From a virus, in the IMG/VR virus record IMGVR_UViG_3300020198_000002, positions 32,001 through 96,000 of that record: a DNA stretch of 64,000 nt, one strand, 5' to 3'. A program made the position numbers and the translations under genes. This document shows, in pieces, positions 3,705 through 32,903 of the stretch. Positions within the stretch are counted from its first letter, which is position 1. Every line of letters begins with the position of its first letter. A model generated the notes under the pieces. That model was given only the letters and a program-made list of their open reading frames with translations. It was not told the DNA's origin and did not search any database.

Positions 3705-6700
3705 ATGCCAAATGTCTACGTCTACGATGAAACAAGAGTAGATTACTTTGTTACTGACGATTTGGGGAATGTTCCTCAACCAGTAACAGAGTTCATTGAC
3801 TATGGCAATGTTTCTGCACAAGCAGATCCACCAGAAATTGATTCATTGCAGTTTAATATAAATGATTACGGATTTGTATCGAGAATTGGTGATGTTTATC
3901 CATACGGCAAGATAAACATAACTGGAAATATTTCGACAGAAAGAGCATATGTACCTGTAACCACTGGACTTGGAATTGTTAGTGGTGCAGCTAAACAAAG
4001 ATTTATTAAATCGACCTGGATCGGGTCTGGCACCCTCTTTGAAATTGGTGGAGGACTGGAAAGACTTGTCATACCCGATTTGGGTGCCGCAGGACCATCT
4101 CCACGCATCACTGGTGGTTCTAGAGAAAGAACTACTAATCGTTATAATGGAACAACCGCAACATTTAAAGTCGTTGCTACTTCTGCGGTAACAAAGGAAT
4201 TTAATGTATATCCAGTAGTCTCTACAATTACCATATCGGTAACTGGAGGTACATCACAAGAATATCCATATGAGTATATCCAAACTATTGTTCAAGAACA
4301 GTTAGTTGGTAAAGCTCGAGAAAAAATTGCGTATCAGTATGCACTTACTGAGATTCTTCCTTTTGAAGAGGATGATTGGGGAGAGTTATCTGATGTAAAT
4401 GGAAGTGCGTTTGATGAAACAACAACAACATTTGATAGTACACTCACACAAAACGTTGCATTTAGTGATCAAGTTATTGTAGAAAAGGAATATTGGGGAG
4501 TAATAACACAAAATCCAAGTCAGACAGAAGATTATGGAAATATTGAGTCTGCCTTCCTGAATAAATTTGGCAAAATACGAACGGTCAAATATACTAAGGC
4601 GAAGTATTGTAAATCATTTGATTACTCTGGTTCTGGTTCAATTTCAGTTTCTACTGGAGTACCACCTACAGATACAGATAGAGCTCGCAAATTTGCAGGA
4701 TCTGGAAACATTGTTATTAATGGTCAACTGGGTCTTTCTCAAGCTCCTCAACATAGAGTATTTGGTCTTGGTGATAAAATTGTTCTTTCTGGCGGATCTA
4801 ATCAAAGATTTATACCAAAACCAATTAGGGGATCTGGACTCGTTAAGATCTTGGGTTCAGCTAGACACAGAAAGACATCCAATCCACCAGAAAGGAAAGC
4901 GGAAATCCTTATCTATGGTTATGTTGATAACGTTAAGACTATATTCCAGCCACAAAGAAAGACAGTCAGAATCAATGTTTCTGGCCAGGCTACAAGGGTA
5001 AAACTATTCAAGGCGTTTAAGGGATCCGATACGATTAGGGTTCTTGGTGCTCTTTCTACTCTGGATATCAGATTTGGTCCACATTGGAGGAGTCCCCTTG
5101 AGAGAGATGGTTATATCGAACCAATTGATTATGGATTTATTACTCAATCAACGACAGAACCTAATGAGGATTGGGGATTAGTAAGTGAAATTCCATTAGT
5201 CATTAATGGTGGCGGATCTCTTGACTTTGGTTATATTATTCCAATATTTACTCGAATCAATATCGTTGGAATTGCTGCTCAAGCATTTGCTAGAGATGCA
5301 TATAAGGGATTGGGTCTGATTAATCTATCTGGAATAAAGGCAGAAAAATCGGCTTATATCTTCAAATCTAATGGACTTTCTGGTATTGCAACTCATCCAG
5401 CCGGATTCTTCTTCTCTGGTGCAAATTGGTTCAGTCAGGCTCCTCAACATAGAGTATTTGGTATTGGTGATTACGTCAAGGTTCTTGGAACTGGTAATGA
5501 ATCCATAACTCCTACAACGGAAATTGGATCTGGAAATATATCAATTTCTGGTGGACTTTCTAATCTTAAGTTTGTAAGTTCTGCAGGAGAACAAACAATT
5601 CTTACCACTATTAGTGGTTCCTCAAAAGAAAGATTCATTCCCAACTTTAATGGATCTGGAAAACTTACTCTCAGTCAGGGAAGAGAGGCTGGACAAACCT
5701 ATCTCAGAATTATTACTGTGGATCCAAAAAGATCTGCAGTTCTATTCTCAGTATATAACAGTCTATCAATATTTGAGAAAAATACAGAATCTTACAATAA
5801 TTCATCAATCAGCAAGAGCGGTGGTGGATCTGCAGATTATGGAAGTATTCTTAATATTCCTTCTTATGGATTTGACCTATCACAACAAGGAAGTGGAAAT
5901 GGCGCATTAACACAAACCTTTGATAATGAAACTAATACTTATGATCAGGATATTGTTACAGGTCGTCGTTATAGTGATGATTTAATTAGCTCTGGATTGC
6001 TGCCAACATTTGATAAGACTTCTTCATATGAAGTCAATTTTGGTTCAAGAAATGTCAGCGAAGATTATGGATATGTCTATCCAAATACTGTTGGTGGACC
6101 GGCATACGATCAATACTTATATCCATATAATACTGGATTCTCTGATCAGGATGGAATTGATAAGGGATACGAAGATCTAGGGTTCTTGAATGAGAATCCG
6201 AATGAACAGGCAAAGGCTCCATTTGGAACAATCCGTCTCCAACAACCATCGTTTGCAAATATTTCCCGAGTTATTCCAAAATATCCAGGAAAAGTTACAC
6301 TATTTGTTTCTGGATTTGCTTCGCAGAAATTTGTACCGAATTGGAATGGATCTGGTACATTAAGTGTTCTTACTGGAGCTGCAGAAGCTTACAGTGCTCA
6401 GACCCCAGAAAATACACCACTAGTTGTAATTTCTGGATCCAGAATTAGTGAAAGGGCAACCTTTGCTATCGAAGGATCTGGTAATATTACAGTTTCTGGA
6501 CAAATTGTAGAAAGAGCAACATTTAGTGAAGTCGGTTCTGGATCTATTAATATTTCTGGAGATTCTCTCAATAGTGTCAGAGCCGATCCAATTGAAAATA
6601 CGGTCCTATTTACATTATATGGTGAATACGAGAAACTTAAGTTTGCCGTTAATCCACCAGTAATAAAAGCCACACTGCGACTTGCTGGGGAACTTAAACA

Positions 6701-8285
6701 TCCATTTATTGACTATACCCCACATTACGGTATTGACAGGAACGTTGGAATTGAGACTGGTATATTCATTCTACCTGGCGGGGCTGGTGGTGAATATGGA
6801 AATCCAGGTATTGTTACTACAAGATATATTCCACAATATCCTGGTGGTTATTCCAATGGTGGAACTGCAGGACCAATTATACTCAGAGATAGAGCAATTT
6901 CGCGTACAAATGCTCCTATCTTTACTGAAGGTACAATTTACATTCTTGGTATTGGTACTGCAGCAAATGGCGATCTCAATGGGGTCCAAGTTGGCGCTAA
7001 ATGGAGATTTATTCCGCAACTTGTTCGTGGTGGTCCTGGACTTATTTCAATCAAAGGTATTGCAGTCACAGCACCACGTCGAGTTTATGGTTACTACGGA
7101 GATCAGAAAAACCCAGGCACTTCTGGAACCATTGTTCTATCTACAGAAAAGAGAAAAACAGAAGAAAGGAAGATTATCAAAATCACTTCTTCAGCTGGAA
7201 TTATTTCTGTTTCTGGAACTGCAACCGAGAGAAAAACAAATGCGTATCAGGGTACTGGAACCCTATTCAAACTATCAGATGCACTGGATTCCAGAACAAA
7301 ATCTTATGTTGCAAGTGGCACTGTACGAGTACAAAGTCAGTCCATATCTTCAGAATCCTTTGTCGCACAAACTCCAGAAAATACAGTCCTCTACACTATC
7401 AGCGGACAAGCGAAAAAATCCGTTCTACTCACTACAGATTTCACTGGAGTTGTGCAAGTTTCGGGAACCAGTGGGGATCCCATTATTCGCAAATCTTTTG
7501 GAGGATCTGGAAAACTATCAACCCGTTCTGGAGCTGCTTGGAACTTTACTCGAAAGTCAATATCAAACGTTGTTCTCGTCAGTATTTCTGGAATCTCAAG
7601 AACCAAGATTGTCCAAGTATTTGGATATTATGGAGATCAAAAGAATCCAGGAACTTCTGGGACTATTACGATTTCTGGACAACTCAGCCATCCACAAATC
7701 GATTATACTCCGGCGTACAAAACTTCTGGATTGTTCAGAGTTGGTGGAACCGCAAAAACAAATCCAAGTCTTCTTGTCATTGGTATCGGCCGAATTTCAA
7801 TTTCTGGGGCATCAAAACAGAAATTCTCCTATCAGGGTTCGGAAAGAACAATTCTCACCACTATTTCTGGATCTGCAAATACCAGAGAACTCAATGTATA
7901 TCAAGACTTTATTACATCTGGTCTTTACAGGATATCTGGTATTTCGGCTACAAGGGAAATACAACTTTATGGATATTATGGGGATCAAAAGAATCCAGGA
8001 ACTTCTGGTGTTATCAGAATATCTGGGACACCTCTGGTACATCCAAATGTCAGATATATTCCATCTCCAGATGGCAGCGGCACAATCTTTATCAGTGGTG
8101 TTGGAAGAAGAAGAAGGATATTCCCACTATACACTGGCGCAGGAATTCTATTTGCATTTTCATCTGGAAAAGAATCTTATTCCAGATCAACATATGTTGG
8201 TATTGGAAATGTTATCCTATCTTCCTCTGGCATTACAGAAATATTGCAATTCGAAGAAGGCAGAACTTACGTTGTTATCATATAA
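3705..8285 (+). CDS. very large repetitive Ser/Gly/Thr-rich virion structural (fibre-like) protein, 1526 aa
   Basis: Long ORF in the structural module; repeated GSGxIxISG, (E/D)DYG and GYYGDQKNPGTSG motifs. Confidence 0.75.
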   Translation: MPNVYVYDETRVDYFVTDDLGNVPQPVTEFIDYGNVSAQADPPEIDSLQFNINDYGFVSRIGDVYPYGKINITGNISTERAYVPVTTGLGIVSGAAKQRFIKSTWIGSGTLFEIGGGLERLVIPDLGAAGPSPRITGGSRERTTNRYNGTTATFKVVATSAVTKEFNVYPVVSTITISVTGGTSQEYPYEYIQTIVQEQLVGKAREKIAYQYALTEILPFEEDDWGELSDVNGSAFDETTTTFDSTLTQNVAFSDQVIVEKEYWGVITQNPSQTEDYGNIESAFLNKFGKIRTVKYTKAKYCKSFDYSGSGSISVSTGVPPTDTDRARKFAGSGNIVINGQLGLSQAPQHRVFGLGDKIVLSGGSNQRFIPKPIRGSGLVKILGSARHRKTSNPPERKAEILIYGYVDNVKTIFQPQRKTVRINVSGQATRVKLFKAFKGSDTIRVLGALSTLDIRFGPHWRSPLERDGYIEPIDYGFITQSTTEPNEDWGLVSEIPLVINGGGSLDFGYIIPIFTRINIVGIAAQAFARDAYKGLGLINLSGIKAEKSAYIFKSNGLSGIATHPAGFFFSGANWFSQAPQHRVFGIGDYVKVLGTGNESITPTTEIGSGNISISGGLSNLKFVSSAGEQTILTTISGSSKERFIPNFNGSGKLTLSQGREAGQTYLRIITVDPKRSAVLFSVYNSLSIFEKNTESYNNSSISKSGGGSADYGSILNIPSYGFDLSQQGSGNGALTQTFDNETNTYDQDIVTGRRYSDDLISSGLLPTFDKTSSYEVNFGSRNVSEDYGYVYPNTVGGPAYDQYLYPYNTGFSDQDGIDKGYEDLGFLNENPNEQAKAPFGTIRLQQPSFANISRVIPKYPGKVTLFVSGFASQKFVPNWNGSGTLSVLTGAAEAYSAQTPENTPLVVISGSRISERATFAIEGSGNITVSGQIVERATFSEVGSGSINISGDSLNSVRADPIENTVLFTLYGEYEKLKFAVNPPVIKATLRLAGELKHPFIDYTPHYGIDRNVGIETGIFILPGGAGGEYGNPGIVTTRYIPQYPGGYSNGGTAGPIILRDRAISRTNAPIFTEGTIYILGIGTAANGDLNGVQVGAKWRFIPQLVRGGPGLISIKGIAVTAPRRVYGYYGDQKNPGTSGTIVLSTEKRKTEERKIIKITSSAGIISVSGTATERKTNAYQGTGTLFKLSDALDSRTKSYVASGTVRVQSQSISSESFVAQTPENTVLYTISGQAKKSVLLTTDFTGVVQVSGTSGDPIIRKSFGGSGKLSTRSGAAWNFTRKSISNVVLVSISGISRTKIVQVFGYYGDQKNPGTSGTITISGQLSHPQIDYTPAYKTSGLFRVGGTAKTNPSLLVIGIGRISISGASKQKFSYQGSERTILTTISGSANTRELNVYQDFITSGLYRISGISATREIQLYGYYGDQKNPGTSGVIRISGTPLVHPNVRYIPSPDGSGTIFISGVGRRRRIFPLYTGAGILFAFSSGKESYSRSTYVGIGNVILSSSGITEILQFEEGRTYVVII
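7086..8008 (+). repeat. three dispersed ~41-nt repeats encoding GYYGDQKNPGTSG (7086-7126, 7620-7660, 7968-8008)
   Basis: Copies 2 and 3 nearly identical (ggatattatggRgatcaaaagaatccaggaacttctgg); a second repeat gctcctcaacatagagtatttggt occurs at ~4743 and ~5439. Confidence 0.85.
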
Positions 8286-8289
8286 AAAG

Positions 8290-8297
8290 TATAAATA
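8290..8297 (+). promoter_or_regulatory. T4-type late promoter TATAAATA
   Basis: Exact consensus in the intergenic gap before 8333. Confidence 0.8.
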
Positions 8298-8332
8298 AAT
8301 CAGAAGCAAAATCGGTTCATGATTTTTGACTC

Positions 8333-8791
8333 ATGACAAAACAAGTACAGTTTAGAAAGGGCACAACTGCGGAGCATTTTAACTTCACAGGCGCCCTTGC
8401 TGAAATTACAGTTGATACTGATAAAAAGACAGCCATTGTACACGATGGAGTAACTCCTGGTGGTTTTGAACTTACGAAATCTAGATGGACATTAGCAACT
8501 GGAAATGCATATTTGGGGACAAATCAAAAGTATACTGTTGATTCCCAAAACAGTCCTGGTGGATTTACTTTAACAATGCCAGAACCAAGATCTGTTGGAG
8601 ACTGGGTTTGGATTGAAGATTTCGCAAATTTTTGGAGTCAAAATCCAGTAAATATTGTGTCCGCCTATGATTTTGAAAACGGACATTTGGTTAGAGAATC
8701 ATCTCCACTTATTCTTGATGTATCTGGTGCTTCAATTTCTTTAATTTGGAATGGAACCTTATGGAAAATCTTCAACAATAGAGGAAGTTAA
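8333..8791 (+). CDS. short tail-fibre-associated protein (Mtd/hyaluronidase N-terminal-like domain)
   Basis: QVQFRKGTTAEH..FTGALAEITVDTDKKTAIVHDG signature plus fibre C-terminal module (FTLTMP...VGDWV...LIWNGTLWKI). Confidence 0.75.
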   Translation: MTKQVQFRKGTTAEHFNFTGALAEITVDTDKKTAIVHDGVTPGGFELTKSRWTLATGNAYLGTNQKYTVDSQNSPGGFTLTMPEPRSVGDWVWIEDFANFWSQNPVNIVSAYDFENGHLVRESSPLILDVSGASISLIWNGTLWKIFNNRGS

Positions 8792-8793
8792 CT

Positions 8794-9198
8794 ATGGCAT
8801 TAACATTAAGTAATAGTATCTCTGGTGAGTTTATTCCATCAGAATCTTCTGGATTTTATGTTTATGCTTTAAGAAGAGATGCAGAATCAATGCTGTATCT
8901 ATCAAAAGTTAGCGCTGCCTCTACTGAAACTGGAGAATTTTATAGGGCAAATGGTACTGCAATTCCTGAATTTGGTGATGGTATTGATTATGGTTGTTAT
9001 GATGTAGGTGTAGGAAAAACTTCAGAAATTAGAAATGATATTGCAAGTAATAAAAAATTTCTAGATGATCCAAATGATAAATATCAACAGATCCGTTTCG
9101 ATAGAAGAAACTTATACTACTACATAGATAATGATGGTTTCTTCGTCATCCGATTCAATGGACCAGATTATGATTACCTCTCTATCGGACCCAAATAA
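8794..9198 (+). CDS. conserved hypothetical protein, probably virion-associated
   Basis: 134 aa between fibre genes; YQQIRFDRRNLYYYIDNDGFFVIR. Confidence 0.6.
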   Translation: MALTLSNSISGEFIPSESSGFYVYALRRDAESMLYLSKVSAASTETGEFYRANGTAIPEFGDGIDYGCYDVGVGKTSEIRNDIASNKKFLDDPNDKYQQIRFDRRNLYYYIDNDGFFVIRFNGPDYDYLSIGPK

Positions 9199-31250: not shown

Positions 31251-32903
31251 ATGGCTGATAAAAGTTTATATCTTGGTAATCCGAATCTAAAAAGAACTAA
31301 TGTTGCCATTCAATTTACCCAAGATCAGATTCAAGAATATTTGAAATGTAAAAGTGATCCAGTTTATTTTGCACAAAATTATGTAAAAATTATTAATCTC
31401 GATCATGGATTGGTTTCATTTGACATGTATCCATTCCAAGAGAAGTTAGTAAAAAATTTCCATCATAGTAGATTTAATATATGTAAGATGCCTAGACAGT
31501 CGGGAAAATCCACGACAGTCGTTTCTTACTTATTACATTATGCTCTCTTTAATGACAGTGTAAATATTGGTATTCTTGCAAACAAGGCTCAAACTGCAAG
31601 AGAACTCTTACAGAGATTACAAACTGCATATGAGGCATTACCCGACTGGATGCAACAGGGGGTTGCTGTGTGGAATAGGGGTTCCGTAGAGTTAGAAAAC
31701 AAATCCAAAATCATTGCTGCTTCCACATCAGCATCTGCTGTCCGAGGAATGTCATTCAATATCATTTTTCTAGATGAATTTGCGTTCATTCCAAATCACA
31801 TTGCTGATGATTTCTTTAGTTCAGTATACCCCACAATTTCATCTGGTACATCTACAAAAGTAATTATTGTTTCTACCCCCAAGGGTATGAATCATTTCTA
31901 TCGTTTATGGCATGATGCAGAACTTGGTAGAAATGAATATGTGACTACAGAAGTTCATTGGTCTGAGGTTCCTGGTAGAGATGAGGCGTGGAAGGAACAA
32001 ACTATTAAGAATACATCTGAGTCTCAATTTAGAGTAGAATTTGAATGCGAATTTCTAGGATCTGTTGATACTTTGATTGCGCCTTCTAAACTAAAGTCGA
32101 TGGTTTATGATGAGCCACTAGCAAAAAATAATGGAACGGAAATTTATTCTCATGCAGAAAAAAATCATAACTATGTAATCACAGTTGATGTTGCTAGAGG
32201 AGTAGAAAAAGATTACTCCGCATTTATAATATTTGATGTGACTTCATTTCCATACAAAGTTGTAGGAAAATATAAGAATAATCAGATCAAACCAATGTTA
32301 TTTCCAAGCGTAATTCATGAATTTGCTAGAGCTTACAATCAAGCTTACGTGTTATGCGAGGTTAATGATATTGGAGATCAGGTAGCTTCCATCTTACAGT
32401 TTGATTTGGAATACGAAAATCTTCTCATGTGTTCTATGAGAGGACGAGCTGGTCAAATTGTAGGAACGGGATTTTCTGGTAAGAAGACCCAATTGGGTGT
32501 AAAGATGTCCAAAACTGTCAAAAAAATTGGATCTATAAATCTAAAAACTTTAATTGAGTCTGACAAACTAATAATATGTGACTATGATATTATTGCAGAA
32601 CTTACGACCTTTGTTCAAAAAAATCAGTCTTTTGAAGCTGAGGAAGGATGTAATGATGATTTAGCAATGTGTCTAGTAATCTTTGCTTGGTTAGTTGCAC
32701 AAGATTACTTCAAAGAAATGACGGAAGATGATATTCGCAAGAGGATATATGAAGAACAAAAAAATCAAATCGAACAGGATATTGCTCCATTTGGATTTTT
32801 AAGTGATGGATTGTCTGAAGAACAAAGTTTTGTTGATATTAATGGTGATCGATGGCATCTTGACGAATATGGAGACATGTCCTATATGTGGGAGTATCAT
32901 TAG
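31251..32903 (+). CDS. gp17: terminase large subunit gp17
   Basis: YLGNPNLK, PRQSGKST Walker A, IFLDEFAF Walker B, STPKG, VDVARG, DDLAM. Confidence 0.96.
   Translation: MADKSLYLGNPNLKRTNVAIQFTQDQIQEYLKCKSDPVYFAQNYVKIINLDHGLVSFDMYPFQEKLVKNFHHSRFNICKMPRQSGKSTTVVSYLLHYALFNDSVNIGILANKAQTARELLQRLQTAYEALPDWMQQGVAVWNRGSVELENKSKIIAASTSASAVRGMSFNIIFLDEFAFIPNHIADDFFSSVYPTISSGTSTKVIIVSTPKGMNHFYRLWHDAELGRNEYVTTEVHWSEVPGRDEAWKEQTIKNTSESQFRVEFECEFLGSVDTLIAPSKLKSMVYDEPLAKNNGTEIYSHAEKNHNYVITVDVARGVEKDYSAFIIFDVTSFPYKVVGKYKNNQIKPMLFPSVIHEFARAYNQAYVLCEVNDIGDQVASILQFDLEYENLLMCSMRGRAGQIVGTGFSGKKTQLGVKMSKTVKKIGSINLKTLIESDKLIICDYDIIAELTTFVQKNQSFEAEEGCNDDLAMCLVIFAWLVAQDYFKEMTEDDIRKRIYEEQKNQIEQDIAPFGFLSDGLSEEQSFVDINGDRWHLDEYGDMSYMWEYH

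Follow-up and report, generated by a model that had tools for sequence, protein, structure and literature searches.

Absence of stop triplets from every sense frame at the 3′ end of a phage tail-module gene

Why should the 3′ end of a structural gene be free of stop triplets in the two sense frames that it does not use? The question is raised by a 64,000-nucleotide (nt) stretch of viral DNA, hereafter the window (positions 32,001–96,000 of IMG/VR virus record IMGVR_UViG_3300020198_000002), in which a gene encoding a tail-module structural protein of 1526 amino acids (aa), the main gene, ends in a zone with no TAA, TAG or TGA in any frame of the + strand. An earlier note, made from the letters of the sequence, had placed this zone at 7001–8282, with the +1 frame open over 6667–8298 and the −1 frame open over 7001–8329, and these coordinates proved correct. 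The gap is 1285 nt long and is limited on the 5′ side by a −1-frame TAA at 6998–7000 and on the 3′ side by the main gene's own TAA at 8283–8285. In the +1 frame the last stop lies at 6664 and the frame stays open from 6667 until a TAA at 8296–8298; the −1 frame is open from 7001 and is closed by a TGA at 8327–8329. The features of the region are collected in Table 1.

The stop-free zone and its chance expectation

The + strand of the whole window carries 3737 stop triplets, or 58.4 per kb, and its second-longest stop-free gap, which lies in the same gene, measures 158 nt. Over the 116,601-nt contig the runner-up + strand gap is 162 nt and the longest gap on the − strand 191 nt. Positions 5701–7000 hold 52 out-of-frame stops, 10 in the +1 and 42 in the −1 frame, close to the ~50 counted by hand in the earlier note. 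The − strand of the zone itself contains 78 stop triplets, in agreement with the strand-specific constraint that had been proposed.

The zone was compared with two nulls of 5000 samples each. When the protein was held fixed and codons were drawn from window usage, the out-of-frame stops averaged 43.2 (standard deviation 5.0, minimum 27); when the zone's own synonymous codons were permuted, they averaged 34.5 (standard deviation 3.8, minimum 21). The zone itself has 0, and the lowest count among all 10,000 shuffles was 21, so that the codon shuffle by which the earlier note had proposed to judge the zone never yields zero. Because no stop is found where permutation of the zone's own codons expects 34.5, the effect lies in codon context. 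Ahead of codons beginning with AA, AG or GA, T-ending codons account for 0/85 in the zone, against 162/341 in other contexts, in line with the C-ending codons that the earlier note had remarked at these positions; upstream of the zone the corresponding counts are 108/275 and 385/823.

When all 64 trinucleotides are ranked by their out-of-frame depletion in the window, TAA, TAG and TGA take the first three places (z −5.0, −4.7 and −3.7, respectively), and in two homologues the same three fall within the four most depleted. The most enriched is TGG, a one-step neighbour of the stop triplets. The main gene is the top outlier among the contig's 67 open reading frames (ORFs), with z −7.1 and an observed-to-expected ratio (O/E) of 0.72, the runner-up having z −4.1 and O/E 0.91. 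Judged from these counts, the constraint is specific to the strand and to stop triplets and is exerted via synonymous codon pairs, and it therefore most likely acts at translation.

The main protein is repetitive, with a high content of Gly, Ser, Thr and Ile, and this would be in keeping with a lack of stops that follows incidentally from composition, from repeats or from the codons used. Permutation of the zone's own codons nevertheless leaves the expectation at 34.5, the three stop triplets lead the depletion among the 64 trinucleotides, and the purge persists across saturating synonymous divergence. We give the by-product view a negligible probability, and as an effect of composition or codon usage it is refuted by the shuffles.

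Homologues and the trait under selection

A protein search gave 337 relatives at E <= 1e-10, and 16 proteins out of the 120 listed went into alignment A1; IMG/VR, scanned with a profile, yielded 77 loci. Loci L004, L007 and L009, which are duplicate contigs of L003 and L005, were removed before stops were counted in homologues, and for a map of the family only complete ORFs longer than 1300 aa were kept, which make up 48 of 79 rows.

The phages S-SSM7 and Sf-FS3 match the window with ~71% nucleotide identity over 38–49% of the query, and their genes SSSM7_110 and SfFS3_93 are syntenic with the main gene. The stop-free gap measures 1197 nt in the S-SSM7 gene, and the gene of Sf-FS3 has gaps of 522, 363 and 243 nt; in L006, a metagenomic homologue with 60% identity, a gap of 1302 nt occupies the same position. 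The 3′ end is purged in 50/50 complete close homologues, with gaps of up to 2145 nt. Over the last 1281 nt of these 50 genes the +1 frame contains 0–1 stops against 3.3–10.6 expected, and the −1 frame 0–10 against 22.8–34.6, at a mean amino-acid identity within the zone of 55%. The +1 frame, the more completely purged of the two, is open for 1299–3849 nt and ends between −11 and +67 nt from the main stop in 35/35 sequences.

In a map of 34 non-redundant sequences the 3′ block is fully purged and the 5′ limit varies by hundreds of codons. The +1 frame is nearly free of stops from about alignment column 500 onwards, and there is a second purged island at columns 720–900. The zone starts ~25 codons past the most conserved central block (PHYGIDRNIGIETG...TNAPI.T.GTIYILG) in L006, in S-SSM7 and in the window, and in three lineages the 5′ limit falls at the same place within ~5 codons, but in different frames. 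More distant genes were also examined. The 2130-aa positional homologue in S-CAM1 (N330309_099, L121:2572-8964), with ~23% identity, has a single stop triplet in the 3157 nt at its 3′ end (5747–8904), and in S-SCSM2R, a more distant homologue, the gaps are just 599 and 301 nt, yet they are the longest in its 244-kb genome.

A main-frame change at a third codon position always changes the two off-frame proteins as well, so that functional off-frame proteins would lower the synonymous substitution rate (dS) of the zone. For 20 pairs chosen from 68 close pairs, one of which had an upstream dS of 0, we obtained 19 ratios of zone to upstream dS, with a median of 0.98 and a range of 0.17–2.07. The scatter of these ratios reflects mosaic recombination. 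In the pair L042 and L045 the 1100 upstream codons are identical (dS 0) and the zone has a dS of 0.40 and a nonsynonymous rate (dN) of 0.14; the C-terminal zone is, on this evidence, apparently swapped between phages as a cassette.

True overlapping genes in one or both off-frames, one of the models in the earlier note, would account for open frames far longer than chance allows (0 stops against 34–43, with a minimum of 21 in 10,000 shuffles) and for the ATG with which the −1 ORF opens right behind the last stop. The unreduced synonymous rate speaks against such genes, as does the absence of any Pfam or PHROG match for either off-frame product and, by tblastn with E below 0.5, of any match to the rest of the contig. 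The identity of off-frame products between homologues is 25–30%, the shadow level for a main frame at ~40% identity, and the ORF starts are unconserved. We therefore reject the model of triple overprinted genes and hold overlapping genes of any kind here to be extremely unlikely. The same results agree with the view in the earlier note that the off-frame products are shadow sequence with no recognisable domain.

The turnover of stops was followed in 16 pairs chosen from the 68 close pairs. Differences in the presence or absence of an out-of-frame stop, per synonymous codon difference, number 17/846 in the zone and 654/1931 upstream, so that out-of-frame stop turnover per synonymous change is 17 times lower in the zone. 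This is found despite the fact that ~12% of the synonymous changes possible in the zone would create a stop (116/978 in the window and 115–131 of 963–989 in four relatives), and for this reason selection against out-of-frame stops is ongoing. Close relatives thus retain the openness of the two frames and do not retain their amino acids, a distinction that the earlier note had proposed to draw. The comparisons show that purifying selection on synonymous codon pairs removes every out-of-frame stop from the zone, and that what it maintains is the open state of the +1 and −1 frames and not any protein that they encode.

Explanations for the open frames

If openness is selected, ribosomes might be directed into the off-frames deliberately. 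Programmed frameshifting or transcriptional slippage would then yield alternative C-termini whose sequence is nearly irrelevant, a reading with which the openness of both off-frames to about the gene end, and the coincidence of the 5′ limits in three lineages despite their different frames, are in keeping. Around the zone start (alignment column 1692) the family has no conserved slippery heptamer, with at most 2/34 sequences sharing one: the nearest heptamers lie at column 1705 (2/34 sequences) and column 1732 (the window alone). There is also no conserved homopolymer of at least 6 nt in the 34 sequences, the 5′ limits differ by hundreds of codons across the family, and the off-frame sequences evolve freely. 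This model, too, had been put forward in the earlier note, and it finds no support here; we consider it very unlikely, and programmed frameshifting and overlapping genes even jointly keep only a small share of the probability. Of the interpretation in the earlier note as a whole, the type of constraint and the shadow nature of the products have stood, and these two models have not.

Alternatively, run-through could serve the messenger RNA (mRNA), with ribosomes in any frame having to stay on until the gene end, either so that a long late mRNA is covered against RNases or so that ribosomes are brought to the start of the next gene. For the stop-free non-coding frames of narnaviruses, ribosome cover has been offered as a hypothesis (PMC8155312). 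Openness without coding constraint would be expected under such a scheme, and so would the 3′ anchoring seen in the end points of the +1 frame in 35/35 sequences; the next ATG lies at +46 to +65 in 34/35. The main frame is already translated, however, and off-frame ribosomes would therefore contribute little cover, and the −1 frame closes 100–304 nt before the main stop in 20/35 sequences. The spacer moreover holds TATAAATA, which resembles the T4-type late-promoter consensus and may free the next gene from any need for coupling, and within the contig the purge is confined to the main gene. The suggestion of the earlier note that ribosomes are delivered to the next gene suits the +1 frame (35/35) but not the −1 frame, which falls short in 28/35. 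We regard run-through for the sake of the mRNA as rather unlikely.

A third possibility concerns mutation instead of translation. Without out-of-frame stops, insertions or deletions (indels) of ±1 nt and compensated pairs of them would give full-length variants with novel segments, and a host-recognition protein could change faster. According to PMC13006647, a protein loop in Bacillus subtilis shows a broader range of indels in vivo once its out-of-frame stops are removed, and the zone does behave as an exchangeable cassette in L042 and L045. Traces of such changes were few: gaps of a length other than a multiple of three occur in just 3/67 close pairs of the stop-free clade, each paired 7–15 nt apart; BLASTP of 96 off-frame against 48 main-frame translations gave 0 cross-frame matches; and the 6 out-of-phase nucleotide blocks of at least 30 nt among the compared pairs all lie 5′ of the start codon. 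The variability of the zone is not raised over that of the rest of the gene (amino-acid identity 0.55 vs 0.53, indels 5.6 vs 8.8 per 1000 codons), and indel-prone homopolymers are depleted rather than enriched. We think it quite unlikely that evolvability explains the purge.

The reading that we tentatively favour is an inversion of the ambush hypothesis in a modular fibre gene, in which ribosomes that have lost the frame cannot stop early and so do not produce truncated, assembly-competent subunits. A fibre subunit would be long, modular and anchored by its N-terminus. A ribosome slipping frame in the distal part would continue to the gene end, and its run-on product would carry a long Leu-rich or Trp/Cys-rich aberrant tail. 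A truncated chain with the N-terminal and central parts could join the virion minus its distal tip, and a chain with hundreds of aberrant hydrophobic and aromatic residues would more likely be excluded or degraded. Each out-of-frame stop would then bear a small cost of its own, roughly the product of the frameshift rate, the number of codons 'caught' and the subunit copies per virion, so that stops would be removable singly, and in very large phage populations such costs might suffice to clear them progressively from the 3′ end.

The purge is stop-specific, blind to the off-frame sequence and anchored at the 3′ end; it is confined to a single gene and goes furthest in the +1 frame, and for this reason an inverse of ambush fits it best. 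The 3′ anchoring of the zone, with its variable 5′ limit, is consistent with tolerance of frameshifts, as is its start shortly past the most conserved central block in three lineages. In AT-rich genomes +1 slips have been proposed to be the commonest accidental slips (PMC5909447). Slip-prone sequences were counted in 24 of 36 non-redundant sequences of the family. In-frame X_XXY_YYZ heptamers number 9 in the zone against 21.0 expected and 6 upstream against 79.6 expected, and homopolymers of at least 5 nt number 26 in the zone against 71.6 expected (O/E 0.36) and 22 upstream against 123.7 (O/E 0.18). In the other 66 ORFs of the contig the O/E is 0.91 for heptamers and 1.01 for homopolymers.

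Several observations weigh against this reading. The avoidance of slip-prone sequences is partly genome-wide in the marine relatives and hence gives no clean gene-specific signal. The −1 frame closes 31–304 nt ahead of the main stop in 28/35 sequences. A clade with ~30% identity (L003 and L005) lacks the purge, with 68 stops observed against 68 expected. That frames are lost here, and that truncated subunits do more harm than run-on ones, are both things that we infer. Many phage fibres trimerise from the C-terminus, and if this one does, truncated and run-on products would be equally inert. Frameshift tolerance, the first of the models in the earlier note, thus survives as the best candidate and as something that we infer; the remainder of the probability belongs to causes so far unconceived.

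Among the diverged homologues by which the earlier note had proposed to test its view, L003 and L005 have a normal out-of-frame stop density, and the S-CAM1 gene, at ~23% identity, is still purged. The L003/L005 clade is a natural negative control whose biology might show the purpose of the purge; its genes (L003:3952-8799 and L005:1971-7316) have a GC content of 33% and a normal density of out-of-frame stops. For whole genomes compared with codon permutation, the O/E of heptamers and of homopolymers of at least 5 nt is 0.70 and 0.82, respectively, in Sf-FS3 and 0.43 and 0.61 in S-SCSM2R.

Related systems, tmRNA and neighbouring features

Phages make overprinted and frameshifted products, as in the nested genes of phiX174 and the tail-chaperone G/GT. 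The main gene resembles these in having long open frames on the same strand of a structural-module gene, and differs from them in that no dS suppression, conserved off-frame protein or slippery site is present. Ambigrammatic narnaviruses (PMC8155312; see also PMC6884476 and PMC8316113) have a long stop-free frame that is seemingly non-coding by polymorphism tests. As there, frames have been cleared of stops by synonymous choice with openness itself selected and with no amino-acid constraint. The narnavirus open frame, however, is the full-length reverse strand of an RNA virus genome, whereas here both sense off-frames are open over part of one gene of a double-stranded DNA phage; the 78 stops on the reverse strand leave no reverse-complement frame spanning the whole segment.

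The ambush or hidden-stop hypothesis describes a frameshift defence in the form of a mild genome-wide excess of out-of-frame stops (PMC5909447; see also PMC3700767 and PMC2996987). It has in common with the present case that synonymous choice is selected on out-of-frame stops and that the rationale is the cost of accidental frameshifts, and the codon-shuffle null applied here is of the type used for it. The sign is opposite: in place of an excess over the shuffle null we found an O/E of 0.72 (z −7.1) for the gene and 0 stops against 34.5 for the zone, a complete purge in one gene family over 1.2–3 kb. In the work of Vallin et al. (2026; PMC13006647), too, missing out-of-frame stops alter the outcome of a frame change, but the system there is a laboratory assay of DNA indels within a loop of 12 codons, and no frame-switched alleles were found among the relatives here. 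Nor does the zone have the marks of a contingency or hypervariable locus, given that tracts are not enriched, no frame-shifted segments were found and variability is not raised.

Our searches of full-text literature brought up no account of a phage gene whose sense off-frames are purged of stops, in agreement with the earlier note, whose author knew of no phage system with this signature. Stop-free sense off-frames in a fibre gene match no mechanism that we found described. With some doubt, we raise the possibility of an undescribed principle of quality control, a mirror image of ambush in which the coding sequence is written so that a frame-lost ribosome cannot terminate. Frameshift errors in a poison-prone subunit would then end as long aberrant products, presumably degraded or excluded. 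The forces usually held to shape synonymous sites are codon usage, the structure of the RNA and a further coding frame, and here the rule 'no stop in any frame' holds over kilobases and over long evolutionary time in one gene family of abundant aquatic viruses. If the purge does manage frameshifts, errors of translational frame are strong enough to sculpt a gene, truncated structural subunits are the thing avoided, and this opposite case offers a direct test of ambush. Whatever the cause, programs that detect overlapping genes by the length of ORFs will report false genes in the zone, and such fibre genes could silently lose the selected property when they are recoded or codon-optimised.

The principle may act together with the cyanobacterial-type transfer-messenger RNA (tmRNA) found in several of the phages, which would clear the other kind of truncated chain, that from broken mRNAs. 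A cyanobacterial-type (permuted) tmRNA is found in S-SSM7, Sf-FS3 and two IMG/VR contigs by ARAGORN and by model RF01851, with RF01851 scores of 109–147 bits against a cut-off of 70, and blastn gave tmRNA matches in S-CAM1 and S-CAM3. The general tmRNA model RF00023 gave sub-threshold matches only, with 0/5 records above its cut-off. No tmRNA was found in the complete genome of S-SCSM2R, though it has a short stop-free zone, or in the window's own contig, which is 55% complete. Each off-frame is closed by an ordinary stop, which would keep slipped ribosomes from turning into non-stop complexes, and a direct non-stop route to tmRNA is thereby ruled out on the sequence. Any link between the zone and tmRNA is at most indirect: it is not exclusive, comes from very few genomes and is confounded with phylogeny. 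In the accessible text of PMC3037559, tmRNA appears in the reference list only and the main gene is unmentioned. The tmRNA adjoins the phage tRNA cluster in S-SSM7 (L087:1477-1779), Sf-FS3 (L093:1309-1598) and an IMG/VR contig (L089:1296-1586), the tag peptide predicted by ARAGORN reads ...AANNIVAFSR...A, and the genome records annotate only 'hypothetical protein' at this locus.

Table 1. Features of the main gene, its 3′ zone and the following gene (window coordinates).
Feature	Position	Strand	Basis or remark
Main gene, encoding a tail-module structural protein (1526 aa)	3705..8285	+	phrog_11522 (unknown function); synteny
Zone without a stop triplet in any + frame	7001..8282	+	0 out-of-frame stops vs 34–43 expected
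Open +1 frame, 543 codons stop to stop, shadow sequence with 20% Leu	6667..8298	+	Stop inside TATAAATAA 3′ of the gene
Open −1 frame, 442 codons, shadow sequence with Trp 8.8% and Cys 5.7%	7001..8329	+	ATG immediately after TAA 6998
Protein motif YGYYGDQKNPGTSG, copy 1	7086..7127	+	Read from the sequence; motif kept in family consensus
Protein motif, copy 2 (FGYYGDQKNPGTSG)	7620..7661	+	Sequence and family consensus
Protein motif, copy 3 (YGYYGDQKNPGTSG)	7968..8009	+	Sequence and family consensus
TATAAATA in the 47-nt spacer	8290..8297	+	Sequence; provides the stop of the +1 frame
Next gene, 152-aa tail protein with Mtd_N domain	8333..8791	+	PF18454 E 2.8e-13; phrog_9648 E 4e-59

The main protein is built of G-S-G...SG.A modules and matches no Pfam family. 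For its last 440 aa, AlphaFold2 was supplied with an alignment of 23 rows, namely the window and 22 of the 77 loci; the mean predicted local distance difference test score (pLDDT) was 26.5, that is, no usable fold prediction. The −1 frame of the window terminates in TGA CTC ATG, in phase with the next gene; this frame relation is unconserved in the family, the three possibilities being taken by 18, 10 and 6 of 34 sequences. All 20 sequencing runs that contain the DNA of positions 6500–8400 are lake-water DNA metagenomes, with no RNA run among them, and may be where this DNA came from; the cultured relatives are marine Synechococcus phages.

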